From: Rhodobacter capsulatus SB 1003
Lineage (GTDB): Bacteria; Pseudomonadota; Alphaproteobacteria; Rhodobacterales; Rhodobacteraceae
Direction: 5' to 3'
NCBI RefSeq assembly: GCF_000021865.1
Contig: NC_014034.1
Location: 1,320,001-1,352,000, forward strand
DNA length: 32,000 bases
The translations under genes and the position numbers were made by a program. Within the stretch, counting starts at the first letter, position 1. Each line of letters begins with the position of its first letter. The notes below the pieces were generated by a model. That model was not told the DNA's origin, did not search any database, and worked only from the letters and a program-made list of their open reading frames with translations. Below are positions 9,063 through 32,000 of this stretch, one piece after another.

Positions 9063-9302
9063 TTGCCCGGTTCAAGACATCTTCTACGTGATGGGCGCGC
9101 AGCAGGTAGCCTTCCGCGCATCGAATCCCGCCTGCTACCTCTCGACGATGGGCAACAGGGGGGCTTTGTGGCTCGCCCCGAGCGGGGGCGAGCCGTGATT
9201 ACACGTGCGGGCGGTGATGGGAGCCCAGTGCGTGGGCGATGGAGAGCCGTGTGGAGCATGACCCGCCGAAGAGCGGGCGGCTGCAGCCACTGAAGATCGC
9301 TC

Positions 9303-9653: not shown

Positions 9654-9829
9654 TACCGCGCCTCTTCAATCAGGTCGGCCCAAACCGAGATGACAGCCGC
9701 CCATTTCGCAAAGTCTTCGGCGATGGCCGCATCGCAGATTTTGGTCGTGTCGTCGTCGAGTTCAATGAACTCAACTCCGATCCCGGCGAGGGCATGTCGG
9801 ATGTGATCGAACTTTTCGTCAGTCGTCAT
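9653..9829 (-). CDS. Hypothetical small acidic protein (58 aa, about 14 D/E vs 5 K/R)
   Basis: My own translation: MTTDEKFDHIRHALAGIGVEFIELDDDTTKICDAAIAEDFAKWAAVISVWADLIEEAR. It falls below the track's length cut-off. Translationally coupled to the 116-aa ORF. Confidence 0.45.
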   Translation of the reverse strand: MTTDEKFDHIRHALAGIGVEFIELDDDTTKICDAAIAEDFAKWAAVISVWADLIEEAR

Positions 9830-13614: not shown

Positions 13615-14159
13615 ATCAATCTCTTCAAGGCAGCCTGCGCCGACAGGCCGGGAGCGAAATTGCTCCTGCTCCTACTTATACCAGCGCGCCCGTCGCGGCG
13701 TCGATATTCGCGGAAACGGCAACCCCGCCGAAGGCTGGACCTTGGCGGGGGAGATTCGGGGCGGAAGAGAAACGCGGAATCGTCGCGGACCAAGGGACCG
13801 CTGCCGCGCCAGTTGGCGCTGGCCTGCAGAGATTTATCATAGGTCTGGATACTCGATGAGCAATCTGTGTCCTGCGCGCCCCATTCCTAACCCTTCAAGG
13901 CAACGGGTGTTTGCGTTATGGCAGGAGAAAACCCCCTGATAAGGGGTGGCCCGATATATATAATAAGGTTGCCGCTTACGAGGGGGTTTCTTTCCAAACA
14001 AAAGGACGACGAACGCCGTTGCCGTGAAAGGTGAGGCAAGGCGTGCTCTCCGAGCCGTCGCGGGAGCGACCCATGCCCCGCCATGGCCCAGTTCCGACGT
14101 CGCCTTACCTCTGGTGCTCCATCCTTTTCGCGTTATCCACGGACCCGGCTTCCCGCGCC

Positions 14160-15245: not shown

Positions 15246-15548
15246 AGTCGTCTCCCTTGATGCGTAATCGCTCTGGGAGACGGCGGGAGACGAAAAGGGT
15301 GATCGGCGGGGGCATGGTGTCACCTGTGCTGGCGCGGTTTGATGCACAGATCGGGGGCCGATCCTCGGTGCCTCTTATACACCACCACCAAGAGCAGGAC
15401 AGCCGTGAATGAGGCGGGCCAAGGGAATTGCAGGGCGATAACGGCCGCCGATCTCGTTGCGCCAAGACTGTCGTCGGGACGATTTGCACCTTGCCGGTGG
15501 ACCGTATGGTCTGGTCTAAAGGGCGTAGCAGTTGGCGGGGGTATTGCG

Positions 15549-17342
15549 ATGACGGAGCTTGTGTTCAAGGGCAAGGAATTTGTTTGGAACCATCACCTTG
15601 CGGTGCCGTTCCGGCCCTTGGTCGTGCAGGCGGAGAAGGGGATCGGCGAGGCTCGGCTCGACGGCAACCTGATCATCCAGGGCGACAATCTGCACGCGCT
15701 CAAGGCGTTGATGCCGATGTATGCGGGCAAAGTTGACTGCATCTTTATCGACCCGCCCTATAACACCGGGAACGAAGGCTGGGCCTACAACGACAACGTG
15801 AATGCCCCGATGATCAAGGAGTGGCTGAACTCCAACCCCATCGGCATCGAAGACGGGCTGCGCCACGACAAATGGTGCGCGATGATGTGGCCCCGACTGC
15901 GTCTGCTACATGAGTTGCTGGCAGAATGGGGAAGTATCTGGATTACGCTTGACGACAACGAGGCGCATCGCGCGAAAATCCTGCTGGATGAGATATTTGG
16001 GGAAGATGCTTTTGTCGCAAATATGGTGTGGCAGAAGCGGTATGTTGCAAACGTGACTGCGCTTCATCTTTCCGACATGCACGACCACGTTCTTGTCTAT
16101 GCTAAGAACCCGTCTGAATTCGCTTTGGGGAAAATCGGCAGAACTGAAGCACAGGCTGCTGATTACAAAAACCCCGACAATGACCCGCGCGGCCCTTGGC
16201 GCGCTCAAGACCTGTCCGCCAGTAAGCAATATCAAGCAGGCATTTTCACAATAACCGGTCCCGATGGAGCTACGTTTGATCCTCCACCGAACCGCTATTG
16301 GCGGATGAACCGCGCGCAATACGACAAATGGCTTGCGGAGGGGCGCATCAGCTTTGGTGTGACGGGGAAAGGCAGGCCGATGTTGAAGCGGTTCCTGACA
16401 GAAGCACAAGACGGCCTCACGCCTGTAACATGGTGGAGCCATGATTTCGCTGGTCACAATAAAGAAGCAACACTGGAAATGAAGGACATCTTCGATGGTG
16501 CGTCCCCCTTCGACACGCCAAAGCCGAAGCGTTTAATTTCTCGCATACTCGAATTGATTGGCGACGACGATGCGCTTGTTCTCGATTCCTTCGCGGGTTC
16601 CGGCACGACCGCCCATGCCGTCCTTGAAGCCAACAAGCGCGACGGCGGTAGCCGCCGTTTCATCCTCTGTGAAATGGAAGACTATGCCGACCGTCTGACC
16701 GCCGAACGGGTGCGGCGCGTGATCAATGGCTATGCTTTCACCGGCACTCAGAAAACCGAACTTGCCCGCGAAAGGCTGAACTGGCGCTCCATCGAGAAGG
16801 CCGCCGATCTGGTCCACAAGGTGCAGGCCATCGAAAACCTGCACGGGCACGAATACGATCGGATCAAGAAGGAGGTGAAGGACGGGGAGCTTGTGGTGAC
16901 GGGCGAAAAGGCCGTGAGCGAACAGGCCGAGGGACTGGGTGGCACATTCACCTATTGCACGCTGGGCGACCCGGTCGAGCTTGACCGCATCCTGACAGGC
17001 GAAGACCTGCCCACCTTCGAGGCGCTTGGCCCCGTGCTTTACCACATGGCCACTGCCGAAGTGGCAGACCCCGCCGTGCTGAACGCAGTCGATTTCTACC
17101 TTGGCGAGGCCAGCGCCTACATCCTCTGGCTCATCTACAAGCCTGATCTGGAATGGCTCAAGTCAGCCGACGCCGCGCTGACCCTTTCCTTCGCGCGCGG
17201 CATTCACGAACTGCGTCCCGACAAGAAGCACCTTGTCTTCGCGCCCGCCCGCCATGTCAGCCAACGGATGCTGGACAGTGAGGGCTTGGGGGTAGAGTTC
17301 GCGCCCTTGCCCTTTGCCCTTTACCGGGTGGAGCGGGGCTGA
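15549..17342 (+). CDS. mod: Type III restriction-modification DNA methyltransferase (Mod; N6-A/N4-C class, beta-type motif order)
   Basis: Motif IV DPPYNTGNEGWAYNDN precedes motif I SFAGSGTTAHAV. The N-terminus LIIQGDNLHALKAL is typical. ATGA overlap with res. Start placed at MTELVFKGKEF (15549) rather than the track start at 15339. Confidence 0.9.
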   Translation: MTELVFKGKEFVWNHHLAVPFRPLVVQAEKGIGEARLDGNLIIQGDNLHALKALMPMYAGKVDCIFIDPPYNTGNEGWAYNDNVNAPMIKEWLNSNPIGIEDGLRHDKWCAMMWPRLRLLHELLAEWGSIWITLDDNEAHRAKILLDEIFGEDAFVANMVWQKRYVANVTALHLSDMHDHVLVYAKNPSEFALGKIGRTEAQAADYKNPDNDPRGPWRAQDLSASKQYQAGIFTITGPDGATFDPPPNRYWRMNRAQYDKWLAEGRISFGVTGKGRPMLKRFLTEAQDGLTPVTWWSHDFAGHNKEATLEMKDIFDGASPFDTPKPKRLISRILELIGDDDALVLDSFAGSGTTAHAVLEANKRDGGSRRFILCEMEDYADRLTAERVRRVINGYAFTGTQKTELARERLNWRSIEKAADLVHKVQAIENLHGHEYDRIKKEVKDGELVVTGEKAVSEQAEGLGGTFTYCTLGDPVELDRILTGEDLPTFEALGPVLYHMATAEVADPAVLNAVDFYLGEASAYILWLIYKPDLEWLKSADAALTLSFARGIHELRPDKKHLVFAPARHVSQRMLDSEGLGVEFAPLPFALYRVERG

Positions 17343-19951
17343 TGCGGACGCTTGACTATCAGGAACGGGTTCTGCGCACGCTGGACGACTATCTGGACGA
17401 GTTGAAGGCGCAGAAGGTGCAGGCCGACCAGATCGACGCTGTGCGCGCGGCCAACCCGAACTTGGCCATCCCGCCCTTGGATTTCTGCGCAAAGGCTTGG
17501 GAGAACCTGAACGCGGTGAAGCCGCTGCCGGTGCGAAAGTTCAAGGACGGCACGGTTGTTCCCTTCTCGCCGCGTGTCGACGGTATCGGACGGGCGGTGC
17601 CCAATGTCACCTTCAAGGTGCCCACAGGCGGCGGCAAGACATGGCTGGCCGTGAATGCCGTTTCCCGCATCATGGGGCGGTATCTGGGCAAGAACGAGGG
17701 CTTCGTGCTGTGGGTGGTGCCGAACGAGGCGATTTACACCCAGACGCTCAAGCGCCTGAAAGACCGGCAGCACCCCTATCGTCAGGCGCTGGACCGCGCG
17801 GCGGCGGGCCGGGTGAAGGTGATGGAGAAGGGTGACCGGCTGGACGCGCGGGATGTGGAAACGCATCTGTGCGTCATGGTGCTGATGTTGCAGGCGGCGA
17901 ACCGGCAGACGCAGGAAACCTTGCGGATGTTCCGCGACCGGGGCGATGTGCACGGGTTCTTCCCGCCCGAGGGGGATCAGGCGGCCCATGCGGCAGAGTT
18001 GAAAGCAGTGCCCAATCTGGACGGCTATCAGGGCATGTTCCCGATGGTGAAGGACAGTCTGGGCAACGCACTGCGGAAAATCCGCCCGGTGGTGGTGATG
18101 GATGAGGGGCAGAAGGCTACTTCAGACCTCGCCAACAAGACGCTTTACGACTTCAACCCGCTCTTTGTGCTGGAACTGACCGCCACGCCCAAGGATGTGA
18201 CCGCCAAGGGCGGCGGGGCGCGCTATGCCAACCTGTTGGTGGAGGTGACGGGGCGCGAGTTGCACGCCGAAGACATGATCAAGATGCCGCTGAACCTTGA
18301 ACCCCGGCAGGGCACGGATTGGCGGGGCACGCTGACGGCGGCGCTGGACCGGCTGAACACCTTGCAGGCGGCGGCAGACGCCTACCGGGCCGACAGGGGC
18401 GAGTTGGCCTATATCCGCCCCATCATGCTGGTGCAGGTGGAGCGGACGGGAAAGGATCAGCGCGACGGGGTGCATATCCACGCCGAAGACGTGAAGGAAT
18501 GGCTGCTGCAAGCGGGGCTGGACGAGGCGCAGATTGCCATTAAGACCGCCGAACAAAACGACCTGAGCCAGCCCGAGAACCAAGACCTGCTTTCGCCAGC
18601 GAACCGAGTGCGGGTGATCGTCACCAAGGCGGCGCTGCAAGAGGGCTGGGATTGCCCCTTTGCCTATGTGCTGTGTTCGCTGGCCGCAGCATCGAACCTG
18701 TCCGCCATGACGCAGCTTGTGGGCCGCATCCTGCGCCAGCCCTATGCGCTGAAAACCAAGGTGTCCGCGCTGGACGAATGCTATGTCATCACGCACCATG
18801 CCGGAACGCGCGAGGTCGTGGAGGCCATCAAGGCAGGGCTCGAAAAGGACGGCTTGGCCGATCTGGTCATCGAAGTGCCAGCGGGCACGGGGGCTACAGC
18901 ACCCGGAACGCAGCGCCGCGTTGAACGGCGGGCAGAGTTCAAAAGTCTGAAAGTCTATCTGCCCAAGGTCCTTTGCGACGATGGCGGAGCGTTGCGCGAC
19001 CTGGACTACGAAACCGACATCCTGTCGGCCATTGACTGGCGCGATTACGACCCAAGCGCAGTGGCACAGGCCATCCCAGAAAACCCGTTGCTGGCCGCAG
19101 CGCAGTTGCAGCGGATCAGCCTGACGGATGGGGGGTCCGATTACTTCCGTCAGGAGGAAATCGCCGCCGCATCAGAGACGCTGCGCTACGATCCATCCTA
19201 TGCTGTGCGCGTCATCTCCGACCTTGTTCCAAACCCGTTTGTGGCGCGGTCGATACTCGGTCGCTTGGTGGACGTGCTGAAGGCGCGCGGCTTTGACGAC
19301 AAGAAGCTTGGGGCCGCGTCGGGCGTCATCGTGGATGCCCTGCGGCTTGCGCTCGATAAGGAACGCACGACACGGGCAGAGGCGCTGTTCAAGGCAGGGG
19401 TCAAAGCGGGCCGTATTCAGTTCCGGCTACGACTGGATGGCAACAACTGGGTGATGCCCGAGACAATAACGACCTTTGAGCCGGACCTTTCCCCGCACAT
19501 GACAGGGGGCGATGGCGGGCCTCTGAAACGCAGCCTGTTCTCGCCAGTGTTCCGCAACGAACTGAACACCGAGGAACAAGGGGTTGCCGTCCATCTCGAC
19601 GGGGAGGCCGCTGTGAAATGGTGGCATCGCAACGTCGCCAAGACCAACTATGGCATCCAAGGTTGGCAGCGCGGGCGCATCTATCCCGACTTCATCTTTG
19701 CAACGGGTTGCGCGGGCGGTAATGGGCGCATCGTGATGTTGGAAACCAAGGGCGACCATCTTCAGAACCCGGACACCGACTACAAGCGCGAGGTTCTGGA
19801 CTTTTTGACGGAGAACTTCTCGTGGGATCAAGCCGTGCCCGCCGGTCAACTACAGATTACCCAAACAGGCGAAACTCTGGAGTGCGCGCTGGTATTGATG
19901 AGGGACATCCCGGCGCGGCTCCCCGTTCTGATTGCTGGCCACGAACCGTGA
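17342..19951 (+). CDS. res: Type III restriction endonuclease Res subunit (SF2 helicase plus PD-ExK nuclease)
   Basis: Helicase motifs VPTGGGKT (I), VVMDEGQ (II), LTATP (III), QEGWDCP (V) and QLVGRILRQ (VI). C-terminal nuclease-like IYPDF...VMLETKG. Confidence 0.9.
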   Translation: MRTLDYQERVLRTLDDYLDELKAQKVQADQIDAVRAANPNLAIPPLDFCAKAWENLNAVKPLPVRKFKDGTVVPFSPRVDGIGRAVPNVTFKVPTGGGKTWLAVNAVSRIMGRYLGKNEGFVLWVVPNEAIYTQTLKRLKDRQHPYRQALDRAAAGRVKVMEKGDRLDARDVETHLCVMVLMLQAANRQTQETLRMFRDRGDVHGFFPPEGDQAAHAAELKAVPNLDGYQGMFPMVKDSLGNALRKIRPVVVMDEGQKATSDLANKTLYDFNPLFVLELTATPKDVTAKGGGARYANLLVEVTGRELHAEDMIKMPLNLEPRQGTDWRGTLTAALDRLNTLQAAADAYRADRGELAYIRPIMLVQVERTGKDQRDGVHIHAEDVKEWLLQAGLDEAQIAIKTAEQNDLSQPENQDLLSPANRVRVIVTKAALQEGWDCPFAYVLCSLAAASNLSAMTQLVGRILRQPYALKTKVSALDECYVITHHAGTREVVEAIKAGLEKDGLADLVIEVPAGTGATAPGTQRRVERRAEFKSLKVYLPKVLCDDGGALRDLDYETDILSAIDWRDYDPSAVAQAIPENPLLAAAQLQRISLTDGGSDYFRQEEIAAASETLRYDPSYAVRVISDLVPNPFVARSILGRLVDVLKARGFDDKKLGAASGVIVDALRLALDKERTTRAEALFKAGVKAGRIQFRLRLDGNNWVMPETITTFEPDLSPHMTGGDGGPLKRSLFSPVFRNELNTEEQGVAVHLDGEAAVKWWHRNVAKTNYGIQGWQRGRIYPDFIFATGCAGGNGRIVMLETKGDHLQNPDTDYKREVLDFLTENFSWDQAVPAGQLQITQTGETLECALVLMRDIPARLPVLIAGHEP

Positions 19952-20003
19952 TGTTGTAGGCCAGAACTGACACCCGAAGGGATGCAGATGCGCAACTTTC
20001 GCC

Positions 20004-20639
20004 TCACATCCCCCACCGTGCTAGAGCGGCCTCGGCCTGCGCCGGGTTCTCTCTTATCCGCAGGATGGCTTGCCGCGAAATTCCGGTCGCCTTGCTGATC
20101 TCGGACGCTCCCGCGCCGTTGTCGAGCATGTCTCGCACGACGATCAGCTTGCTGCGATCGAAGGTCGGCTTCTTGCCACGGTAGCGGTTGCCATTAGCCT
20201 TCGCCGCCTCGATACCAGCGCGCTGCGCCTCTCGCAGCGCCTCTGCTTGGGCTTGGGCCGTGGCAGCCATAAACGCGATCATCGAGTCCCGCACCGCCTG
20301 CTGCACCGGATCAGAGGTAGAGCCGTCGAAGGTCATGTTGTTGATGACCGTCCGGACGATGACCCCCTGCTGCATGAAATGCCGCACGACTTCGGTGACA
20401 TCGGTGTAGTTGCGGCCAAGCCGGTCGAGCCAGCGCACGACCAGCACGTCGCCCTTCCGAAGGAGATCGAACAATCGACGCCCCTCGGCTCGCTCGCGCA
20501 ATCGAGTGCTGACGCCGGACACACCGTGGTCGGCAACCACTTCGTCGATCACGAAGCCTGCCATCTCGGCTTGGGTGCGCTGGTGAGAGAGCGTCTGATC
20601 CGCAGTGGACACGCGGGCGTAAAGAACGGTGCGGCTCAT
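20004..20639 (-). CDS. Serine recombinase (resolvase/invertase family)
   Basis: MSRTVLYARVSTADQ catalytic-Ser motif, VVRWLDRLGRN, and a C-terminal HTH (ISKATGISRQAILRI). Start at 20639 is preceded by GGAGGAA. The track ORF to 20957 is an upstream extension. Confidence 0.9.
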   Translation of the reverse strand: MSRTVLYARVSTADQTLSHQRTQAEMAGFVIDEVVADHGVSGVSTRLRERAEGRRLFDLLRKGDVLVVRWLDRLGRNYTDVTEVVRHFMQQGVIVRTVINNMTFDGSTSDPVQQAVRDSMIAFMAATAQAQAEALREAQRAGIEAAKANGNRYRGKKPTFDRSKLIVVRDMLDNGAGASEISKATGISRQAILRIRENPAQAEAALARWGM

Positions 20640-20649
20640 GTTCCTCCGG

Positions 20650-20690
20650 ATGTCCGTTAAGGTGATGTCCGTTAATTCGCATGTCCGTTG
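20650..20690. repeat. Three direct ATGTCCGTT(A/G) repeats immediately upstream of the recombinase start
   Basis: ATGTCCGTTA at 20650, ATGTCCGTTA at 20665, ATGTCCGTTG at 20681 (15-16 nt spacing). Confidence 0.6.
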
Positions 20691-21004
20691 ATGCGTGTCA
20701 ACCTCTATGGATACCCCAGTTGGGCGGCTTCGGGGTGACCGTTGGGGTATGGTTGAGCGGACGACCGAATGCGAGGAGGATTGTAGGACGCGCTGTGTGC
20801 GAGAAGCAACGAATGTTCCATATTTGAAGACGCGTCGCTTTGTGGCTATGGACAGTTCATGAACGATGAAGCAAACAACTCCAGCGTGCGGGGAGACTCT
20901 GCAGTCGGTCCATGCGGGCTTTACTTGTGAAGGATAGGCGCTCAGCCTAGCTGGCATGCCTATAGGTTAGCTGATCCGTTTCGGAAAGGCCAACCTACTC
21001 TCGT

Positions 21005-21655
21005 ATGAGGGGTAGATTATCTGATTTCTATGCCCCGCACGCACAGAGCTATTGGAGATTAAAGGTGACGAACGTTTCCGGCATAAACTCGCCGACCCCG
21101 GATAAATCCCTTGCAGATAAGATTTGGTTAACCTCTCATTGCAGAATGAACGCGGAGAGGAGGAATCGACGCTACGAAATTTGGGCTACAATCGAGTTGT
21201 CGTCGGTTTCAGTTGGAATAATTGGCCTGACCACATTCCGCGATCGACTGGGTGCCTTCCCTGTGGACGAATATACTTTGATACTTTCAATTATGACTCT
21301 TGTAATATCTACGCTGATTGCCGGAGCGAAATTTGGCGAGCGAGCGGCTACGTTCAGGGAATGCTACCTTCAACTTGAAAGGCTGAATGCCAGCAAGCAA
21401 GACCTGCAAGAAAAAACCTCAGAGTATAATGCGATACTGGCATCATACCCGAACCACTCGGACATTGATTACACATCTCTAATCATATCGAGAACTCTGT
21501 GGCGAAATCAGGAACTATGCGACCCACGAGGCAGATCAATCACATGGACGTGGGGAACTCTTGGTTCTTGGATATTGTATATTTTCGTGGAGGTGCTGGT
21601 ATATTTGGTTCTTCCTGCCTTGGTTTTTCTGCCTGCCGCCGTTCTCGCTTGGTGA
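21005..21655 (+). CDS. SLATT-like 2TM membrane protein (putative effector partner of the RT)
   Basis: Two adjacent hydrophobic helices (IWATIELSSVSVGIIGLTTF and LILSIMTLVISTLIAGAKF) are followed by a helical segment (RECYLQLERLNASKQDL...YNAILASYP) and a C-terminal TM. This layout resembles SLATT domains. The start is uncertain: ATG 21005, or GTG 21065 preceded by GGAG. Its stop abuts the RT start. Confidence 0.5.
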   Translation: MRGRLSDFYAPHAQSYWRLKVTNVSGINSPTPDKSLADKIWLTSHCRMNAERRNRRYEIWATIELSSVSVGIIGLTTFRDRLGAFPVDEYTLILSIMTLVISTLIAGAKFGERAATFRECYLQLERLNASKQDLQEKTSEYNAILASYPNHSDIDYTSLIISRTLWRNQELCDPRGRSITWTWGTLGSWILYIFVEVLVYLVLPALVFLPAAVLAW

Positions 21656-23008
21656 GTGCTGCAGATGGGGTCAAAGGAAACTTTTTGCGCGCTGTTTAAC
21701 CCAAAGGAACTTCAAGACATATTTGATAAGTCTGTTGCGCTGAAGGGGGCCATCGGGCGCGATGGCCAATCAGTGGAAGCATTCAGAGGGCGCATAAAGG
21801 ACGAGCTTTCCCTCATCGAACGGAAGGCGCTGAATTGCACATACAAATTCACCGCCTACAGTGAAAAATTGGTTTCCAAAGGTGCAGGGAAAAGGCCGAG
21901 ACAGTTGTCTAAGCCGACCGTTCGAGACAAGGTAACACTCAAGGCGCTATCGAAGATACTGGTCTCATTATTCCCTTCTGCCATTCCCGCAACCCCCCAC
22001 TCAATAGTGAGGGATGCTTTGGGCATTATAAGGGGTGAATTCGGTGAATTTTATTACGTTCGACTTGATATTCAAGAGTTCTTCCCGTCAATCGACCACG
22101 ACATACTAATGCGGCTACTTAGGAGGCGCATTAGGTATCGCCCTATTCTTCATTTGGTTAAGGATGCAATTAGAACGCCAACAGGCGTGAAGAAAAGTGA
22201 GGGCTCGCTTAACCAAGTTGGCATCCCGCAAGGCTTGAGTATATCAAGCGCTTTGGCGTCAATATATTTGGCTGATATGGATGAGGAATTGAGTTCCCTA
22301 TGCAGCGGTCGCTACTTTCGTTATGTTGATGATGTGCTGTTCGTGTGCAAGCCCTCGGAAGCTGAAGAAATAGCCAGACGCGCGACCGAAATATTACAAA
22401 AAAAACGCAAGATCAGTTGTCATCCTGTCGGGACTGGCGGCAAGAGCGTAATTGTTCCAGGTGCTCAAGGCATCGATTACATAGGCTATCACTTCTCGCC
22501 CGGTCTCCTGCGTGTTCGAACCTCGTCAGTGCGTAAGTATTTGGGCGTAATGGTGACGGAGTTCTCGAAGTGCAAACAGGCAGGACTTGCGGGGAGCAGG
22601 TTGTGGCGACTGAATCTTCGGATCACTGGCTGTATTTTTGATGGAAAACGAATTGGCTGGATGTTTTTCTTTTCTCAGACGGAGGACGTGTCACAGTTGA
22701 AGCGGATTGATGCGTTCATCAAGTCGCGTGCTGGTTTGGTTTCGGGTCAAGCGGAGGCTTCTAGGGTCAAAAGACTTGTTCGAGCTTATCATGAAATTAA
22801 ATACAATCTGCACGGGACTAAATACATCCCCAATTTTGACAAATATGGGCTTGAGGATAAGAGGCGAGATATTTGTCTGCTGGCCCCCCACTTATTTTCT
22901 GCTCGTGTTGAAAGCATGACGGCAGACGAAATAAACGCTGCATTCCGAACTTGCATTAACAAGGAAATCTCGGATATCGAGAAAGACCTGCTTGAGGCAT
23001 TTTCGTAA
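21656..23008 (+). CDS. Reverse transcriptase (standalone, non-retron-looking; UG/Abi-like or group-II-like lineage)
   Basis: RT motifs in order: YVRLDIQEFFPSIDH (motif A), GIPQGLSISSALASIYL (motif B), YFRYVDDVLFV (YxDD) and IDYIGYHF. About 150 aa of C-terminal extension. Start is GTG 21656 or ATG 21665. Confidence 0.85.
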   Translation: MLQMGSKETFCALFNPKELQDIFDKSVALKGAIGRDGQSVEAFRGRIKDELSLIERKALNCTYKFTAYSEKLVSKGAGKRPRQLSKPTVRDKVTLKALSKILVSLFPSAIPATPHSIVRDALGIIRGEFGEFYYVRLDIQEFFPSIDHDILMRLLRRRIRYRPILHLVKDAIRTPTGVKKSEGSLNQVGIPQGLSISSALASIYLADMDEELSSLCSGRYFRYVDDVLFVCKPSEAEEIARRATEILQKKRKISCHPVGTGGKSVIVPGAQGIDYIGYHFSPGLLRVRTSSVRKYLGVMVTEFSKCKQAGLAGSRLWRLNLRITGCIFDGKRIGWMFFFSQTEDVSQLKRIDAFIKSRAGLVSGQAEASRVKRLVRAYHEIKYNLHGTKYIPNFDKYGLEDKRRDICLLAPHLFSARVESMTADEINAAFRTCINKEISDIEKDLLEAFS

Positions 23009-23242
23009 TGTTCGCCAGAATGACGTAGGGCGTTGCCCGACGTCCATTTCGCGTCTGCCGCACATATTCGGTGTATGGAACCTGGCCATAGCAATTTTCT
23101 AATCGGACTTAGCCTAAATTCTGAATGCTACCGGCTTTTCCATCGGGCGGGGATGTCATCTCGTTCAGGAGCGCCCCGCCCATCTGGCCCGCCGAAGCGC
23201 TTCCGGTTGGGCGCTCAGGGGCATCGTGTGCGTATGACATCT

Positions 23243-23254
23243 TGCGTGACATTT
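23243..23254 (+). promoter_or_regulatory. Right-end copy of the TGCGTGACATTT arm-type motif
   Basis: Exact 12-mer shared with 7528-7539. A related TGCGTATGACAT sits at 23229-23240. About 60 nt inside attR. Confidence 0.45.
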
Positions 23255-23313
23255 TGGAGGGCGGGCGAACGATAACCTTTTGAAATATAAAGGAATCGTT
23301 GGAGCGGCGACGT

Positions 23314-23330
23314 CCACCGCTTCCGCCACC
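23314..23330 (+). repeat. attR core: CCACCGCTTCCGCCACC
   Basis: Exact direct repeat of 7433-7449. No tRNA body precedes it. Confidence 0.8.
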
Positions 23331-23469
23331 TCACATTGCCGCGCAAGAAAATAAATCACTATAATTCATATGCTTAGACAATAATTCAATCTCGCGGAAA
23401 TCTAAGTCCCCTTGATATCGCTCCGCAAAACGCCACACAATATGCTCCACATTGATCTGTGAGGGCATC

Positions 23470-24735
23470 ATGACGATCATGCGGCGGGGCAAGGGGTTGA
23501 GTCTGCGCAGGCGGGTGCCGCAGCGCTATCGGCCGGTCGAGCCGCGCACCGAGATCTGGCTCAGCCTGCATACGGATTCCGAAACCATCGCCAGCCAGAA
23601 GGCGCCCCGGATCTGGCACGAGCAGATCGAGGCCTGGGAAGCGAAGCTCGCGGGCGACAGCGCGGAGGCCGAGGCGCGCCATGCCGCCGCGCGGCGCCTC
23701 GCAGAGGTGCGGGGCTATCGCTATCTGACCGCGGACAAGGTGGCGAGCCTGCCGCGCAGCGCGCTTCTCGAGCGGGTCGAGGAGGTGGCCCGGCGCGGTG
23801 CCGATCCCTCCGAGGCGTCCGCCCTTCTCGGCGGCGAGGCCGAGCCGCCGATCACCGTCAGCCGGGCGCTCGAGCTTTATTGGGGTTTCGCACGCGATCT
23901 GGTGCTGAACAAATCCCCCGATCAGCTCCGCCGCTGGCGCAACCCGCGCATCAAGGCGGTGAAGACCTTCATTGATGTGATCGGCGACAAGCCCCTCGCC
24001 CAGATCACCCGCGACGACATGCTCGCCTTCCGCGAGTTCTGGCTCAACCGGATCGAAGAAGAGGGCGTCAAGCCCAATAGCGCGAACAAGGACCTCACCC
24101 ATCTTGGCGGCGTTCTGCGCATGGTCGTCGAAAAGAAGAAGCTGGCCATCGTGCTGCCTTTGGGCGGGCTTGCCCTGAAAGAGGGAGACAAGGCGCAGCG
24201 CCTGCCGTTTTCGGACGGCTGGATTCGCGATCGCCTCTTGGCCCCGGGGGCGCTCGACGGGATGAACGACCAGGAGCGCTGCATCTTGCAGGTGGTGATC
24301 AACACCGGAATGCGGCCCAGCGAGGTTGCGGCGTTGCGGTCCACAGAAATCGCGCTGGATGTCGCCGTGCCGCATCTGTCGCTGCAGCCGATCGGGCGGG
24401 AATTGAAATCGGCGTCAGCGCGGCGGGTGATTCCGCTCTTGGGCATTGCCCTTGCCGCGATGCGTGCCTTCCCCTAGGGGTTTCCGCGCTATCGGGAAAA
24501 CTCTGCCAGCCTGAGCGCCGCGATGAACAAGTACCTGCGCGGCAACGGGCTGATGGAGACGCCTCGGCATACGATCTATTCGCTGCGCCACGCTTTCGAG
24601 GACCGGATGCTTGCCGCGCGCATCGACGAGCGGATCCGGCGCGATCTGATGGGCCATTCGCTCGGCCGCGAGCGCTACGGCTTAGGTGCCTCGCTCGAGC
24701 ATGCCGCCGAATTGCTGGTGCCGATCTCGTTCTGA
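23470..24735 (+). pseudogene. Tyrosine integrase paralogue interrupted by one in-frame TAG (24475-24477)
   Basis: ORFs 23452..24477 and 24523..24735 are in the same frame. ...AMRAFP*GFPRYRENSASLSAAMNKYLRGNGLMET aligns with the integrase-1 segment ...AMQRFPNGFPRYDDKAATLSATVNKYLREAGLMET. The catalytic LRHAFE / MGHS / RYG lie downstream of the stop. Confidence 0.8.
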
Positions 24736-25941: not shown

Positions 25942-26637
25942 GATCTCCGACGGTCATTCGTGACCCTCGCTTGTGCGAACGATGCCGTTCGGAACAGCCC
26001 CCGTGGTAAGGGAGACTCCAGACTGCCACGGGGCGGGGTAGTGCCAGCCACACGTCCTTCAGGAAACCGACGGACGCTAAACCATCGGAACCGGCAGCGG
26101 GGGCTTGCCACCTTCAGGTCCAGACGTTGTAGGCACCCTCGCTATGGGGCGGGGGTGCTTTCACCTGGTGGAAATTGAAGAGGGAGGCGCCTAGCGCCTC
26201 CCTCCCTACTCAACTTAGTGGGCCGGCCCAAAAGAACAGCCGGATTAGCCACCAAATCAGTCTCAGAACCGCCCAAACTAGGTGGTTCTCTTGCTTGCGA
26301 TGCATTTCCCTTCTCCCCAGCCGATGGAAGTCGGTTTGGAAAGAAACGGTGAGGCGGCTGTAGCCTCACAGGAAGATTGGCAGCTCCGCAGTGCTAGCAG
26401 CTATGGTCCGTTACTGGGCGGAGATTTCTTCTTCAGAAAGCAGCCTTACAACTTCGATATTGGAACGGCGAAAGCCGAATTCAAGATGGAAGCGGATTAG
26501 TGGACCAATCTCACCTAGGGCCAGCGTTAACTGCGAGTGACTGACTGATTCACCTAGCATCCGCACTGCTTATCACTTGCTTATGGAATCGGTTCAAGCG
26601 CTTTGCAGCGCGTAAAGAATCATCTCTAATAAGTTGT

Positions 26638-26949
26638 TTATATGCGGGAAATTTGTCTGAGCGAGAGGATTCGAACCTCCGACCCCCTGCGCACGAAGAA
26701 GCGGGCCGGCCGCACCAGACCCGCGCCGCGCAGCATCAGTCCGTGCTCGAAACTGGTCGCGCCGTTGATGTGCAACTCGACCAAGCCGCGCCAGATCGGA
26801 TTGTCGAGATACCGCGAGACCCGTTTGCGCGCGAGCGCGCTGAAGCCCGGTTCCCGCGCGACACGCGCGTCAAACGCCCGCCGCGCAGCGATCTCGGCTT
26901 CGACGAGAAAGGTGACCGGTTCAAGGTCGAGGTCGTCTGTGTCCTGCAT
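26638..26949 (-). CDS. Hypothetical ORF, probably a truncated N-terminal gene fragment whose 3' end reads into a tRNA-like fragment
   Basis: 103-aa ORF divergent from the XRE gene. Its last ~20 codons (..GSEVRILSLRQ..) are a translation of a tRNA T-arm. Confidence 0.3.
   Translation of the reverse strand: MQDTDDLDLEPVTFLVEAEIAARRAFDARVAREPGFSALARKRVSRYLDNPIWRGLVELHINGATSFEHGLMLRGAGLVRPARFFVRRGSEVRILSLRQISRI
26657..26690 (-). other. tRNA 3'-end-like fragment (T-arm plus acceptor strand only)
   Basis: The minus strand reads GGGGGTC-GGAGG-TTCGAAT-CCTCT-CGCTCAG-A. I could not fold a D-arm or anticodon arm from the upstream sequence. It sits at a sharp AT-rich to GC-rich composition break. Confidence 0.55.
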
Positions 26950-26961
26950 TTCCGCCCTCCA

Positions 26962-26980
26962 TTATCTAAATTTTAGATAA
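26962..26980. promoter_or_regulatory. Perfect palindrome TTATCTAAA-T-TTTAGATAA in the divergent promoter region (candidate XRE operator)
   Basis: 9-bp arms with a 1-nt centre, 48 nt upstream of the XRE start codon, in an AT-rich patch. Confidence 0.55.
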
Positions 26981-27027
26981 TCTACTTTCCGCATTACCGC
27001 CAGCCCCAAAATGCAGGGCGGAGCGAG

Positions 27028-27285
27028 ATGCCGAGAACGATCCACACCGAAGGCCAGCGGGCGCTTTGCGAGGCGATCGCCGCCGCCCGCCGGGAGAAAG
27101 GGCTCAACCAGGCCGATCTCGCCCGCGAACTTCATTGCCAGCAATCGCTGATCGCGCGCATCGAATCCGGCGAACGGCGGATTGATGTGCTGGAGTTCAT
27201 CAAGATTTTCCGCGCGCTTGGTGTGTCTCCGGCGGAGGCGCTTCGGCGTGTGGGCGAGCAGATTCCTGCGGATCAAGGCATCTGA
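27028..27285 (+). CDS. XRE-family helix-turn-helix transcriptional regulator
   Basis: 85 aa. REKGLNQADLARELHCQQSLIARIESGERRIDVLEFIKIFRALGVSPAE matches the Cro/C1-type HTH pattern. Confidence 0.85.
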   Translation: MPRTIHTEGQRALCEAIAAARREKGLNQADLARELHCQQSLIARIESGERRIDVLEFIKIFRALGVSPAEALRRVGEQIPADQGI

Positions 27286-27481
27286 AGTCGGCGCTTCCGG
27301 CATTGCAGAACGCCGTTTGCGGCGACGCAGGGCTTTGACGCTGCCCAGATCCATCGGGTCTTGCGCCCGACGGGGGGACGGAGGTCATCCACGACGGCGG
27401 CTGCAACCGGGGCGCATTGCGCTGCGGCGGCTTTCCTGTAACCTGCGGCAAATTCTTGTGTTGCCGTCAGGTGTTCCGCGC

Positions 27482-29284
27482 ATGACCATTGATCTCGGCC
27501 CCATCCAGACCAGAGCCGCTCAGGAGATTGCCGTCGGCGGGCTGCGCGTCTGGTATCATCTGCCCTTTGCCCTCCTTGATGACGGCATCGATCCGGCCCG
27601 GCACGGCTGGGTTGCGGAAAAGCCCAAAGGCACGCTGCAACAGCAGTTCTACTTTCATCCTTTCGTGTCGAATGCGCTTTGGGACCGGGCCGATGGCGGC
27701 GTCTCGGCGTTGTTCGACCTCTATCGCAAACCGGCGTTCGAGTTCCGGCATTTCACCGCCGACTTCGACTCGACCGACTGGAAAGAGATGCAAGATGGCA
27801 AATCGGAGCAACTGCTGTGCCGTCGCACCTTTCGCGGCACGGTGCGCACGGTTGAACTGCGGCGCCTGCGCGAACCGGCCGGGTCCGGGCGGCAGAGCGG
27901 TTTGCACGGCTTTGCCATGCTGGTCGTCAGCGTCGATTTCCTTTGTGCTGCCTATGGCGAATATCCGCGCGACAAGGTAAAGGACCCGGCCCCCTTCGCC
28001 CCGCTGACGCTGGCCGATGCGCAAGATGCGTTGGATCTGTCACGGCGCATCTTTCCGCGCTGGCATTTCTACGGCGAGGATGCACTGCCGGGGGATGCGC
28101 TGACGAGGGTGCCCTGTTTCGGGCCTGCCCCGTCGCGTCCCGAAATGGACGAAGGGGTGCGCAAGGGAAAGACGCAGCTGATGCCCTGGGTGCGCGAACT
28201 TGTTGCCCCCTTCACCCTCTCGGAACCGGATTCGCGCCATTTCGGCGACGAACGCGCCTTCATCACCTCGGCTGTGCTCTTGGGCGATGGCAGCGAACAG
28301 GAGGCCGAGGCCTTCACCCTGATGACCCGGGTCAAGGACAGCGACCTGATGCGCTTGGCCGAGGTGGACCGGCGTGGCACGGGCTACAGCTACAACAAGC
28401 CCTTCCTCGACGCACTCGCACCGGGGTATTTCTACACCCGACAGGCCCCCGATGGCCCCACCGGCACCGGCAATTCCACGCTTTACATCACCGCCTCGCA
28501 CCATTTCTGCGCCCTAGGCGCGGGCGGGTACATGCGCAACGTGATCCTGGGCAACGGCATCCCGGGCCATCACGACATGGGCCATGCCGAGGAATATTAC
28601 CGCCACATGCAGTTTCTGTGCGTGTTCGAATTCTTCCGCCTGCTGCAATTCTCCCAGACCCTGTCGGAACTGGTGCGCAGCCAGCGCGAGCGCGGGGCGA
28701 TCGGCGACAAATCCCGAACGGCGGTGGCGGATTTCGGTCAGCGGCTGATGCGGATCCGCGACGAATTCCTTGACTTCACCCACCTGCACCACTTCTCCAA
28801 CATCTCCTCGCAACTGCAACCGCGCGAGATGTTCGACCGCCTCTATGCCGCCTTCGGCATTCCCGCGATGTTTGCCGAGGTCGAAAAGGAACTCGAGGCG
28901 GCGACGAGTTTCCACGAGATGCACACCAATGCCGAGGCGCGCGAGGATGCGGCGCGGCTCAACAAGCTGGTGTCGGTCGGCGTGCCGTTGTCGCTGTTGG
29001 TCGGCGCGGGGGGGATGAACATCTTCATCGGTGACAAGGCCCCGTTCGGGTTGCACGCGATCGTTCCGGCCCTCCCGGGGCAGACCGATGCGGCGGGGCC
29101 GCCCGATGGCTGGCTGCAACTGCTGCAACTCTCGGTGCTGGTGGCGATCATCGCCGGGATCTGGGCTTTGGCCGAGCGGGTCTATTTCCGCGACAAGCGG
29201 TCCTTCTGGGGCTGGCTGGCCTATGGTGCGGCGGCGGCGGCCTTTGCGGGCAGCGAGGCGCTGCATCTGTGGCCCGCGCCTTGA
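27482..29284 (+). CDS. CorA-family membrane protein with a large N-terminal domain (candidate CRISPR-associated effector)
   Basis: The C-terminus matches CorA architecture: LNKLVSVGVPLSLLVGAGGMNIF (TM1 ending in the GMN signature), a short loop, then TM2 LQLSVLVAIIAGIWALAERVYFRDKR. About 480 aa of soluble N-terminal region. Start placed at the ATG at 27482 (MTIDLGPIQ), because the track's TTG at 27182 overlaps the XRE gene. Confidence 0.7.
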   Translation: MTIDLGPIQTRAAQEIAVGGLRVWYHLPFALLDDGIDPARHGWVAEKPKGTLQQQFYFHPFVSNALWDRADGGVSALFDLYRKPAFEFRHFTADFDSTDWKEMQDGKSEQLLCRRTFRGTVRTVELRRLREPAGSGRQSGLHGFAMLVVSVDFLCAAYGEYPRDKVKDPAPFAPLTLADAQDALDLSRRIFPRWHFYGEDALPGDALTRVPCFGPAPSRPEMDEGVRKGKTQLMPWVRELVAPFTLSEPDSRHFGDERAFITSAVLLGDGSEQEAEAFTLMTRVKDSDLMRLAEVDRRGTGYSYNKPFLDALAPGYFYTRQAPDGPTGTGNSTLYITASHHFCALGAGGYMRNVILGNGIPGHHDMGHAEEYYRHMQFLCVFEFFRLLQFSQTLSELVRSQRERGAIGDKSRTAVADFGQRLMRIRDEFLDFTHLHHFSNISSQLQPREMFDRLYAAFGIPAMFAEVEKELEAATSFHEMHTNAEAREDAARLNKLVSVGVPLSLLVGAGGMNIFIGDKAPFGLHAIVPALPGQTDAAGPPDGWLQLLQLSVLVAIIAGIWALAERVYFRDKRSFWGWLAYGAAAAAFAGSEALHLWPAP

Positions 29285-29551
29285 GGGGCTGCGGCACCCT
29301 GTCTTGCATCCCGGAAACTTCGCGGTGGACAGGGGAAATTTCGCCTGCCAATCTGACCTTGACGGCGGGAAAGCCGGGCCAAAAGGCCGATTCACTGTTG
29401 GAAAACCTGCCATGACCTTGAAAATCAAGGATAAAGGAGGAAAAACACGCGCAAAAACCGGGCTTGCAAGGGCTGTTTCGGGGCGTCGGGCACATCACGG
29501 TTGGAAAGCGGACCAAAAAGCGCTTTCGGGTCTTGGGTTTGCAGAGGGTGA

Positions 29552-29802
29552 GCCCAGATACCTCTCCCGCCAGTAAGCGGATTGAGACGTCGATCCGGTC
29601 TCAAGCTGCGCCTGCGTCACGGCCCAGATACCTCTCCCGCCAGTAAGCGGATTGAGACACGGGGGCGGCGGCGAGGCAGGCGAAGGCGGCGGCGCCCAGA
29701 CACCTCTCCCGCCAATAAGCGGATTGAGACTGCGTCACCTCCGATCAGCGCGAGGATGCGATCAGGCCCAGACACCTCTCCCGCCAGCAAGCGGAGTGCG
29801 TG
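29552..29802 (+). CRISPR. CRISPR array: four 37-nt repeats and three spacers (33, 35, 35 nt), last repeat degenerate
   Basis: R1 = R2 = GCCCAGATACCTCTCCCGCCAGTAAGCGGATTGAGAC (29552, 29622). R3 (29694) has 2 mismatches. R4 (29766) loses the 3' ATTGAGAC. The repeat contains a CCGC-loop-GCGG hairpin followed by the 8-nt tag ATTGAGAC. An A-rich leader lies at about 29290-29551. Confidence 0.9.
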
Positions 29803-29931
29803 GGGTGTCGGTGTATGGGCCCGCCTGCGTGCGGATGTGGCGTGGTGACGCATCCTTGACGGCTGAAACATCAGGGCTTGCCGGGAATCATTCCTGCCCC
29901 TCTCATGTCCCCATTCATGCAGGGGGGCAGG

Positions 29932-31398
29932 ATGTTCCTTTATCTCGAGGGCGTGAATCTTTACGCCACGATTTACGATACCGAAGACCTTTCCACGATC
30001 CGCGGCGGCTCGATGGCGCTGGAAACTCTGGCGCAGCGGGCGCAGGCGGCGCTTGGCGGCACGCTGCGCGGGCAAGGCGCCTCGATAGCGCTGTTGGAGT
30101 TTTCCGGCCCGCCCCCCGAGGAGGACAAGATCCGCGCCTTTCTGAGCGCCACGCCGCAATGCCATTTCACCCTCACCTGGGGCACGGGCGAGACCGAGGC
30201 GCAGGCGATCAAGGCGGCGCGAGACCGGCAGTTTTCGCAGCTTGCCACGGTGGTGCTGCCTGCGATCATGGCGGGGGTGCGCCCCTGTGCGATCGATCAC
30301 ACGCGGCCCGGCACGATCAGCGATTTCGACCTCAAGGAGCAGAAGGAACGTTTCCTTTGTGCCTCGGTCGCGGACCGGCGCAAGATCGGTCGGGTCGGTC
30401 GGCCGCAATTGTTTCGCAAACGCCAGCCGCAACCGCCGCAAAGTTTCGAGGACATCGCGCCCGAGGACGCCCCCGGCCTCAAGCCAAATGTGCGGGGCAA
30501 GATTGCGGTGATCGTCGCCGATGGCATGGGGGGCGGCGATCTTGCAAAGGCCTATGGCACCGACACCGCAGGGTTCAGCACTGCGATGGCGGCGTTTCGG
30601 GCGCGTCTGGCCGAGGCGATCGAAGATTGGGCTAGCGCCGAGGGGCTGATTTACACCGACAAGGCGGGCGTGGCCCATGCAAGGGTCGATGTGCTGATGT
30701 GGGGCGGCGATGACATGACCTTTGTCGTGCCCGCTTCGCATGTGCTGGGGTTTCTGGCGGCGCTGCAGGGGGTGCTGGGCGCGCCCTTCGACAAGGACAA
30801 GGGGACGGCGCGGTTCGGGCACCGCATCGGCTGCGTGATCGCGCAGCGCAAGACGCCGATCCGGCTTTTGAAGAAACTGGCCGGCAGCGCCGAGGCGGCG
30901 TTGCGCGATGCGGTGACGCCCGAGATGCGCAAGGCGGGGGTGTCGGTGGTCTCGCTTGACGTGTTCGAAAGCGCGCCTTTGCCCTTTGCCTCGATCCTCG
31001 ATCATCGCCGCACCGTGTATGGGCAGGGCTATCGCTCGGGCGCGGATGCGGTCTTGCTGTCGCATGTCGCCAAGATGGCGGCGGCGCTGCGGGAGCTGGA
31101 CGACGAGGAAGGGGCGATCCTGAAGATGTCGCAGATTTATCGGCTGCTCGATGTCGCGCGGCTGTCACGGCGGGACCTGTGCAGCAAGGCGGCAGATGAG
31201 GCGATTGCCGAGGCGATGAAGGGGCATTTCGAGCGGGTGAAGGGCACGCCACCCGATATGGCCGCGTGGGAAAATGGCTGGACCGGGCAGGCCTCGCGCG
31301 GGTTGGCGCTGCTTCTGGCGCAGGTGGCGCAACTGCAACCCTATGCGCAACCCTTTACCGACGAACGCGCCCGCGTTCTTTCGGAGGCCGTGCAATGA
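29932..31398 (+). CDS. cas10: Compact Cas10/Cmr2-like protein without an HD domain (GGDD palm motif retained)
   Basis: N-terminal LEGVNLYATIYDTEDLSTIRGGSMAL resembles the Cas10 GIQ.FI....L..lRGrS segment. KIAVIVADGMGGG resembles the (l)l.aDGD.MG motif. VDVLMWGGDDMTFVVPA resembles the Cmr2 GGDD motif. The helical C-terminal third is D4-like. Only about 488 aa. Start could also be 29878, 29905 or 29917. Confidence 0.65.
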   Translation: MFLYLEGVNLYATIYDTEDLSTIRGGSMALETLAQRAQAALGGTLRGQGASIALLEFSGPPPEEDKIRAFLSATPQCHFTLTWGTGETEAQAIKAARDRQFSQLATVVLPAIMAGVRPCAIDHTRPGTISDFDLKEQKERFLCASVADRRKIGRVGRPQLFRKRQPQPPQSFEDIAPEDAPGLKPNVRGKIAVIVADGMGGGDLAKAYGTDTAGFSTAMAAFRARLAEAIEDWASAEGLIYTDKAGVAHARVDVLMWGGDDMTFVVPASHVLGFLAALQGVLGAPFDKDKGTARFGHRIGCVIAQRKTPIRLLKKLAGSAEAALRDAVTPEMRKAGVSVVSLDVFESAPLPFASILDHRRTVYGQGYRSGADAVLLSHVAKMAAALRELDDEEGAILKMSQIYRLLDVARLSRRDLCSKAADEAIAEAMKGHFERVKGTPPDMAAWENGWTGQASRGLALLLAQVAQLQPYAQPFTDERARVLSEAVQ

Positions 31399-32000
31399 CC
31401 GCGCCACTTGTGTTTGATGTCACGCTGTCGCTCAAGGCACCGTTCCTGTTTCCCGGCCAGGATCCCGGTCGGTTCGGCTATGACCGGGTCGCGCTGCGCG
31501 ATCTGGACGGTCGGCCGATCATTCCGCAAGACCAGATCAAGGGGCTGATCCGGCATGGTCTGACGATCATGGGCGAGACCGAGCTGGTCGAGGGGCTGAT
31601 GGGCAAGGGCTCGGCCGATGCGCGCAAGGACAGCGGCGGGGCGTTCGAGCCCGCCAAGGGGCGGATGTTCCTGACCGATCTGCGCTGCACGATCGAGCCC
31701 GATCTGCGCTCGACCGACTACCACCGGGTGCAGATCGACGACGAGAGCGGGGCGGCGAAACAGGGGCATCTGTTGCGGATCGAGCAGGTCTTTGCGCCCG
31801 AACGGGAGGTTGCCTTCAGCGGGCGGATCACCCTCTTTCCGACGGCGAAAGCGCCCGATGCGCAGGCGCTTGCTCTGCTGCTCGCGGCGGCACTGCAGTG
31901 CAAGCGCCATATCGGCGCCATGGCCTCGATCGGTTTTGGCGAGGTCAGCGGCTGCTCGGTGGAGCCGGCCCTGGAAGCCGAAGAGGCCTGCAAGTTGCCG
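31395..32000 (+). CDS. RAMP-superfamily (Cas7/Cmr-like) protein, 3' end beyond the window
   Basis: My own translation is open to the window end. It begins MTAPLVFDVTLSLKAPFLFPG...LRDLDGRPIIPQDQIKGLIRHGL (the classic G.P.IP...iKG.lR RAMP motif) and contains a glycine-rich loop HIGAMASIGFGEVSG about 185 aa in. ATGA overlap with the cas10-like gene. Confidence 0.7.
   Translation, partial: MTAPLVFDVTLSLKAPFLFPGQDPGRFGYDRVALRDLDGRPIIPQDQIKGLIRHGLTIMGETELVEGLMGKGSADARKDSGGAFEPAKGRMFLTDLRCTIEPDLRSTDYHRVQIDDESGAAKQGHLLRIEQVFAPEREVAFSGRITLFPTAKAPDAQALALLLAAALQCKRHIGAMASIGFGEVSGCSVEPALEAEEACKLP

Follow-up and report, generated by a model that had tools for sequence, protein, structure and literature searches.

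The window analyzed here is a 32,000-nucleotide (nt) stretch of Rhodobacter capsulatus SB 1003 (contig NC_014034.1, positions 1,320,001 to 1,352,000), and its last part, positions 27028-32000, carries the beginning of a type III CRISPR locus with all of its genes on the + strand. A preliminary description had proposed a co-oriented block of an XRE regulator, a 600-amino acid (aa) CorA-family protein, a three-spacer array, a 488-aa Cas10, and a coupled RAMP gene in this part, and each of these elements was recovered where it had been placed. The genes beyond the window edge were read from the same locus in the complete R. capsulatus genome (L001), in which the full CRISPR locus extends 9.8 kb past the window end in the order XRE, corA, array 1, cas10, cas7-5, cas7x3, cas2 (reverse), array 2, RT-cas1 (reverse transcriptase-cas1, reverse), array 3, cas6 (reverse), NYN, and DEDDh (reverse). 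The R. capsulatus locus is a compact member of the defined CRISPR subtype III-D2 and does not constitute a new class of system. Its features are the following.

27028..27285, + strand: XRE/Cro-type helix-turn-helix gene, 85 aa (Pfam HTH_3, E 1.8e-13)
27482..29284, + strand: CRISPR-associated CorA-family membrane effector gene, 600 aa (PADLOC PDLC01043)
29285..29551, + strand: leader of array 1, compared with the sequence upstream of arrays 2 and 3 in L001
29552..29802, + strand: CRISPR array 1, four 37-nt repeats and three spacers
29932..31398, + strand: cas10 of subtype III-D2, 488 aa (PADLOC PDLC01418 and fold match)
31395..32000, + strand: 5' part of cas7-5 (Cas7.1-Cas5 fusion), 202 of 548 codons (PADLOC PDLC01419), continuing past the window end
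Downstream of the window in L001: cas7x3, triple-Cas7 fusion, 875 aa
Downstream of the window in L001, reverse strand: cas2, directly after cas7x3
L001 16595-18600, reverse strand, outside the window: RT-cas1
Downstream of the window in L001, reverse strand: cas6
Downstream of the window in L001: NYN-domain gene, 214 aa
Far end of the L001 locus, reverse strand: DEDDh exonuclease gene, 156 aa

The TGA of cas10 overlaps the ATG at 31395 as ATGA, so that cas7-5 is translationally coupled to cas10, and 4-nt overlaps join cas10, cas7-5, and cas7x3 in turn. The apparent lack of cas6, cas1/2, and a signal-degrading enzyme, which the preliminary description had listed, holds within the window but is an effect of its edge, as all of them (the enzyme as a candidate) lie within the 9.8 kb downstream. 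No stand-alone Cas11 small-subunit gene and no CARF, SAVED, or Csm6-2 gene were found in the locus, and a VapBC-like pair was not found among its called genes, NYN and DEDDh being present instead. A promoter and terminator scan of positions 26600-32000 returned a site count not above that of shuffled sequence and is uninformative on operon structure, and a scan against Rfam gave tRNA only. The identical Cas10 sequence is present in 78 blocks of a public assembly collection and is carried by R. capsulatus genomes.

Array 1 is built on the 37-nt repeat GCCCAGAYACCTCTCCCGCCAGTAAGCGGATTGAGAC, its spacers measuring 33, 35, and 35 nt. In the repeat, a small hairpin precedes the 8-nt tag ATTGAGAC (minimum free energy -8.6 kcal/mol, z -1.8), and the terminal repeat of the array is degenerate at its 3' end. 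Taken together, the degenerate last repeat and the repeat ending in ATTGAGAC after the hairpin fit a leader on the corA side and indicate that array 1 is transcribed on the + strand, like the genes. The identical repeat recurs in identical orientation in the two additional arrays downstream of the window, the spacer counts being 3, 2, and 4 for arrays 1, 2, and 3, and the leaders are related: ~230 nt are common to arrays 1 and 2, and the last ~57 nt to arrays 1 and 3. Searches with the nine spacers gave no match in a phage collection and one chance-level match only, for the GC-rich spacer 2 (E 1e-2), in a plasmid collection.

Cas10 and the fused Cas7 subunits

Several PADLOC Cas10 profiles match the 488-aa protein, the best of them PDLC01418 (E 7.8e-18). 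The Pfam Cas10-Cmr2_palm2 model scored 25.2 bits, slightly below its 27-bit cutoff, and NCBIfam gave sub-threshold matches only, both for Cas10 and for the RAMP fragment. The AlphaFold2 model of the protein is confident (predicted local distance difference test (pLDDT) 85.7, predicted template modeling score 0.88) and opens with a Palm1 strand and closes with a helical bundle at residues 355-472; the domains run from Palm1 through a reduced linker and Palm2 (GGDD at 258-261) to a helical Cas11-like C-terminal domain. The top 50 Foldseek matches of the model are all Cas10, Csm1, or Cmr2 chains, led by the type III-D Cas10 of Synechocystis (8s9t_C, E 2.7e-16, TMq 0.64), and the palm fold proposed for this protein is thereby borne out. 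The Foldseek library of PDB structures runs to April 2026 and lacks 9WXH, so that the fold comparison covers PDB entries other than the III-D2 complex discussed below. The protein had also been described as a short Cas10 without an HD nuclease, and no HD dipeptide was found anywhere in its 488 residues. The model starts directly at Palm1, and the gap of only 129 nt between the last repeat of array 1 and the cas10 start codon leaves no space for an HD domain upstream. HD domains occur in only 3% of III-D Cas10s (PMC11229360).

The sole PDB sequence match of the Cas10 is 9wxh_B (E 2.1e-9), a chain of the III-D2 complex of Gammaproteobacteria bacterium HyVt-522, for which the cryo-EM structures 9WXH, 9WXI, and 9WXJ have been determined (Mitsuda et al. 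2026, PMC13294483). Residues E8, N11, L12, S29, L33, D286, G287, and F306 of the 9WXH Cas10 correspond to E6, N9, L10, S27, L30, D197, G198, and F215 of the R. capsulatus protein, and its GGDE motif corresponds to GGDD. The family alignment shows no or almost no variation at most of these catalytic or ligand-contacting positions, and its invariant residues in this Cas10 are D197, G198, W257, and the GGD at 258-260. Both metal-binding motifs and the N-terminal motif (E-G-V-N-L ... R-G-G-S) that contacts S-adenosylmethionine (SAM) are kept, and there is good residue-level support, from the alignments, for a predicted acceptor (SAM) site and a predicted metal site in Cas10. A reading of the short Cas10 as a minimal polymerase of the mCpol/Panoptes-like kind was considered and rejected in view of the array next to cas10, the fused Cas7/Cas5 proteins, and the homology to 9WXH. 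In a different R. capsulatus strain (GCA_052362895.1, L087 22592 onward) the gene at the cas10 position was called as 234 aa, not 488 aa, which suggests that cas10 is truncated in that strain.

Cas7/Cas5 subunits, for which the downstream sequence was to be inspected, are present there as Cas7-5 (548 aa) and Cas7x3 (875 aa). The fragment of cas7-5 inside the window matches the PADLOC profile PDLC01419 ('Csm3', 548 positions) over positions 1-202 with an E of 9.7e-141, a near-perfect match from which it follows that the cas7-5 family is already in cas profile collections. The full 548-aa protein is collinear with 9wxh_C (E 3.9e-26), residues 8-247 and 336-540, the Cas7 and Cas5 halves, aligning to 7-255 and 369-604, respectively, and it matches the Pfam RAMP domain at 11-184 as well as Csm4/Cas5_IIId profiles. 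Its putative RNA-cleaving residue Asp30 (window 31482-31484) aligns with D29 of 9WXH. The 875-aa Cas7x3 contains three Pfam RAMP domains in separate segments (45.1, 30.6, and 26.1 bits; cutoff 22.1), the first of which aligns to 9wxh_D (E 2.4e-12), and it is 360 aa shorter than that chain. Among PDB sequences, the 9WXH chain is the sole or the best match of both fusion proteins; a weak sequence match to Cas7-2x of Synechocystis III-Dv was also seen for the 875-aa protein. In four related loci (L011, L025, L052, and L055, at ~13000-14300) the Cas7x3 homologue aligns to residues 7-396 only and lies in open reading frames of ~420-460 aa, and these loci may carry the triple-Cas7 fusion in split form or in another arrangement.

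Subtype III-D2 is defined by an architecture of Cas10, Cas7-5, Cas7x3, and CorA, the last being typical and not universal (PMC13294483). The R. capsulatus locus has an HD-less Cas10, the Cas7-5 and Cas7x3 fusions, no separate Cas11, and a CorA gene, and thus all of the defining features; it lacks only the VapBC-like module, and its membership is not excluded by this absence because the module is typical, not defining (PMC13294483). The only studied III-D2 system is that of HyVt-522, an uncultured gammaproteobacterium assembled from a metagenome, and E. coli served as the host in its tests. The products of its complex are SAM-AMP and SAM-AMP2, both acting on CorA, and cyclic oligoadenylate (cOA) was not made; CorA is needed for growth arrest, and a PIN-domain VapC-like protein was proposed by Mitsuda et al. 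as the off switch (PMC13294483). The suggestion of a CorA-linked signaling module with a SAM-AMP logic like that of Bacteroides fragilis is supported by homology to this complex. The idea that the locus might be a reduced or divergent signaling type III variant needs correction as regards novelty, as III-D2 had already been defined and was characterized biochemically and structurally in 2026 (PMC13294483).

The two III-D2 loci have in common the order corA, cas10, cas7-5, cas7x3; an HD-less Cas10 made of Palm1, linker, Palm2, and a Cas11-like C-terminal domain, with no separate Cas11; a 37-nt repeat with ~35-nt spacers and an 8-nt tag; and the SAM-contact, metal-binding, and Cas7.1 Asp residues. 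They differ in the size of their subunits, Cas10, Cas7-5, and Cas7x3 having 488, 548, and 875 aa in R. capsulatus as opposed to 592 (including ~20 tag residues), 635, and 1235 aa in 9WXH, and at the active site, where R. capsulatus has GGDD instead of GGDE and Ser216 at the position of Asp307. Whereas the HyVt-522 locus has a VapBC-like toxin-antitoxin module, the R. capsulatus locus has an XRE gene upstream and NYN and DEDDh downstream, and it also differs in having RT-Cas1/Cas2 adaptation genes and three mini-arrays, of which array 1 separates corA from cas10.

Three other type III systems resemble the locus in part. In the III-B (Cmr) system of B. fragilis, Cas10 makes SAM-AMP that acts on a CorA-family effector (Chi et al. 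2023, PMC10600005; Chi and White 2024, PMC11346440), as is proposed here by analogy, and an accessory phosphodiesterase-type nuclease and an NYN ribonuclease are encoded in the locus; that system has six separate Cmr subunits and no fusion proteins, however, its phosphodiesterase is the DHH-family NrN and not a DEDDh enzyme, and its CorA is only distantly related (~15% identity between III-B and III-D2 CorA). The Synechocystis III-Dv complex (PDB 8S9T to 8S9X) provides the best structural match for Cas10 and also has fused Cas7 subunits, but its fusions are Cas7-2x and others rather than Cas7-5 and Cas7x3, and the two Cas10s are 14% identical in the structural alignment. Subtype III-E Cas7-11 (gRAMP) presumably arose from III-D2 when more of its Cas7 domains became fused, yet it is without Cas10 and without nucleotide signaling and acts through the Csx29 protease.

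The CorA-like effector and the NYN-DEDDh pair

The 600-aa protein is matched end to end by the PADLOC 'CorA-like' profile PDLC01043 (E 1e-128, residues 12-577 on profile positions 2-457 of 457), and of the profile sets used PADLOC alone recognizes it, with zero matches to Pfam (including CorA PF01544) or NCBIfam (including transporter models) and nothing in a PDB sequence search at E up to 1. Two hydrophobic segments lie near the C terminus at about 496-517 and 542-570, and the first of these two C-terminal hydrophobic helices (TM1) ends in the GMN motif, residues 511-513. In the AlphaFold2 model (pLDDT 85.8) a long stalk helix spans residues 460-519. Foldseek returned CorA Mg2+ channels as 21 of the 22 top PDB matches, all of them weak (best E 3e-3, probability 0.96). 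Judged by this model, the protein has the C-terminal membrane module of CorA, composed of the stalk helix, two predicted transmembrane helices, and GMN. The N-terminal soluble region of ~360 aa is beta-rich and confidently modeled, and it is without an informative PDB match.

A CorA-like protein 41% identical to that of the window (PADLOC CorA-like, E 1.6e-75) was also seen on an 89-kb metagenome contig from ENA (L090 4076-9151), where its gene has a Drt5 reverse transcriptase gene and a convergent gene for a CD-NTase-type cyclase as neighbors. Neither Cas10 nor a RAMP gene or an array was found in the 4 kb upstream and the 10 kb downstream of that gene, and the CRISPR-type CorA thus also occurs outside CRISPR loci.

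The last two genes of the locus, NYN and DEDDh, form a discrete 1.24-kb block (L001 19940-21174) ~8 kb downstream of the window end. The DEDDh protein matches the PADLOC CRISPR-associated DEDDh profile (E 5.5e-9) and, below cutoff, Pfam RNase_T (18.5 bits); its catalytic motifs DxE and H-x4-D are intact, and a PDB sequence search with it found nothing. DEDD-family enzymes accompany CorA in III-B loci (PMC10600005), NYN genes are likewise known alongside CorA-type systems (PMC11346440), and III-D CorA loci have been said to encode no known SAM-AMP-cleaving enzyme (Makarova et al. 2025). In this R. capsulatus strain the DEDDh gene is not adjacent to corA, and its product is, on the strength of these motifs and matches, a candidate companion signal-degrading enzyme.

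The DNA of the NYN-DEDDh block is 92% identical to that of R. capsulatus SP108 and 89% identical to that of Rhodobacter lacus (L011 5194-6429, L025 4106-5359), whereas the Cas10, CorA, and Cas7 fusion proteins of these three Rhodobacter III-D2 loci are only 27-34% identical. Conservation of the DNA among the three ends exactly at the NYN and DEDDh gene ends, the flanks beyond DEDDh being unmatched, and a reading of the pair as part of a conserved chromosomal flank was rejected on this ground. We tentatively suggest that NYN-DEDDh might be a portable accessory module exchanged between divergent III-D2 cassettes, perhaps one that supplies an off switch for SAM-AMP/SAM-AMP2 and trims CRISPR RNA (crRNA). 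An NYN ribonuclease has been implicated in crRNA trimming in B. fragilis (PMC11346440).

Related loci and the surrounding island

With one genome scanned per species, 266 relatives of the window Cas10 came to light, of which the best 80 loci were examined. A Cas7-5 homologue follows cas10 in 75 of the 80. Where 2.5 kb or more of sequence upstream was available, 40 of 56 loci contain a CorA homologue, across many phyla, and in 35 loci it lies immediately upstream of cas10 on the same strand; the association of this CorA with CRISPR genes, on which the signaling proposal had been made to depend, is thus upheld. An array directly upstream of cas10 and several small interspersed arrays are common among the alphaproteobacterial relatives, and the repeats of related loci end in ATTGAGAC or CTGAAAC. 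With the repeat recurring in two downstream arrays and the gene order in dozens of genomes, the pattern is not due to chance. The layout is usual within the III-D2 group and not peculiar to this locus. Of the three departures from the textbook arrangement that had been singled out, the short HD-less Cas10 and the corA immediately upstream are standard for III-D2, the intervening array is common in alphaproteobacterial relatives, and the missing cas6, cas1/2, and signal-degrading enzyme reflect the window edge.

The XRE gene has a different distribution. It ends 196 bp upstream of corA, its product gives weak PADLOC matches to capH and restriction-modification control-protein profiles, and no homologue was found in any of the 80 related loci; it is a possible transcriptional regulator of the locus.

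A Marinovum sp. chromosome (L089 7551-21633) bears the same compact cassette, in the order integrase, CorA, 8-spacer array, Cas10 (485 aa), Cas7-5 (544 aa), Cas7x3 (853 aa), 6-spacer array. On the flanks of the cassette lie a DUF6538 phage-type integrase and IS66/IS110 transposases, adaptation genes are not in view, and this suggests that the III-D2 effector cassette moves as a unit. The Cas7x3 homologue of this cassette has a faint gRAMP profile match.

The R. capsulatus CRISPR locus itself sits at the end of a defense island (window 7358-24477) next to a tRNA-Ser gene (7358-7447). The features of the island are as follows.

7486-8856: integrase
10843-13614, reverse strand: unannotatable 923-aa gene
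15339-17342 and 17342-19951: type III restriction-modification pair, Mod and Res, respectively
20004-20639, reverse strand: resolvase
23470-24477: DUF6538 integrase-like gene

Window positions 21005-23008 are low in GC (47-48% as against about 63-70% elsewhere) and encode a SLATT protein (PADLOC RTasSLATT, E 3.7e-56) and a UG17-class defense reverse transcriptase (E 2.9e-135). This segment is probably a separately acquired defense reverse transcriptase (DRT) system.

Proposed mechanism and competing explanations

We consider it likely that positions 27028-32000 are the 5' half of a R. capsulatus III-D2 locus that would sense foreign RNA, conjugate SAM with ATP through Cas10, and arrest growth through CorA. 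The steps are inferred by homology with the HyVt-522 system. Cas6 would cut the 37-nt repeats to give crRNAs with the 8-nt 5' tag AUUGAGAC, and Cas7-5, Cas7x3, and Cas10 would assemble on one such crRNA. Complementary foreign RNA whose 3' flank is unpaired to the tag would switch on the palm pocket of Cas10, which would then join SAM to ATP to form SAM-AMP and possibly SAM-AMP2. The signal is predicted to bind the CorA-like membrane protein at its cytoplasmic domain, whereupon growth would stop, and cleavage of the target RNA by Asp30 of Cas7.1 would turn synthesis off. More speculatively, DEDDh and/or NYN (which is PIN-like) may degrade the signal or trim crRNA, replacing the VapBC-like module.

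A number of observations weigh against this interpretation, and those that concern the signal come first. Identity to the studied proteins is low, and HMMER covers only part of the Cas10 against 9wxh_B, in two stretches totaling 39.7 bits. Asp307 of the studied Cas10, which lies near the adenine amino group, helps to specify adenine, and cannot be changed to alanine without loss of activity (PMC13294483), is replaced by Ser216. The position is not conserved in the closest clade, and distant members of the family keep Phe-Asp where R. capsulatus has F215-Ser216. The protein also has ~80 aa fewer in the stretch from Palm1 to where the aligned linker/Palm2 region begins, its residues 41-99 corresponding to 44-182 (paper numbering) of the studied Cas10, whose linker binds and senses the 3' anti-tag (PMC13294483). 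In Cas7-5, no residue could be aligned with Trp351 of the lid, which is needed for SAM-AMP2 in the studied system (PMC13294483), and the sensor domains of CorA are very divergent between systems.

These differences raise the question of whether a III-D2-type system might here use a different signal, either a cOA or a conjugate of SAM with another nucleotide, sensed by the divergent CorA. The Ser216 substitution at a position that varies in the closest clade, the shortened region between Palm1 and Palm2, and the strong dissimilarity of the CorA N-terminal domains between systems would all fit such a change, and a clade of CorA proteins activated by cA6 has been proposed for Actinomyces (PMC11229360). 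The retention of the SAM-contact motif and both metal-binding motifs speaks against it, however, as do the failure of the studied III-D2 complex to produce cOA, the absence of CARF, SAVED, and Csm6-2 genes from the locus, and the presence of a DEDD-family nuclease, which is typical of SAM-AMP loci. A different signal is, on balance, unlikely.

The remaining points against an active SAM-AMP pathway concern the state of the locus. RT-cas1 appears frameshifted near L001 18240-18255 relative to the intact homologue of SP108, the first ~120 codons of its RT domain being in a different frame from the rest of RT-Cas1, and the product is called at 533-535 aa. The three arrays are tiny, and protospacers were found for none of the nine spacers in the phage and plasmid collections. 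Adaptation may therefore have ceased, or the locus may be in decay. In the stronger form of this explanation, the effector genes are intact while spacer acquisition and defense have both been lost and the locus is decaying or silent, and the split RT-cas1, the low spacer numbers, the lack of a credible match for all nine spacers, and the 234-aa call at the cas10 position in another strain would be its signs. Against this, corA, cas10, cas7-5, cas7x3, and cas6 are of full length and their catalytic residues are conserved, an identical Cas10 occurs in the 78 assembly blocks, and adaptation genes are not required for interference. The phage collection is in our judgment poor in Rhodobacter phages, so that the missing protospacers weigh little. 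We regard loss of defense by decay as quite improbable.

A reading of the CorA-like gene as a common Mg2+/Co2+ transporter, or as an island gene that has nothing to do with the cas genes beside it, is very improbable, since despite the GMN motif and two C-terminal transmembrane helices that it shares with CorA channels and the 41%-identical homologue in a cas-free locus beside Drt5 and a CD-NTase, it matches neither PF01544 nor the NCBIfam transporter models, fits a CRISPR-associated CorA profile from end to end, is linked to the window Cas10 family in the 40 of 56 informative loci, and has a counterpart that the studied III-D2 system needs for growth arrest.

R. capsulatus is a well-studied and genetically tractable bacterium, and in it the III-D2/CorA system is natively encoded in a compact form. 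Its smaller subunits, the replacement of Asp by Ser in the nucleotide pocket of Cas10, and the NYN-DEDDh pair are natural variants with which the residues that determine the output of SAM-AMP versus SAM-AMP2 and the shut-off of the signal could be probed.

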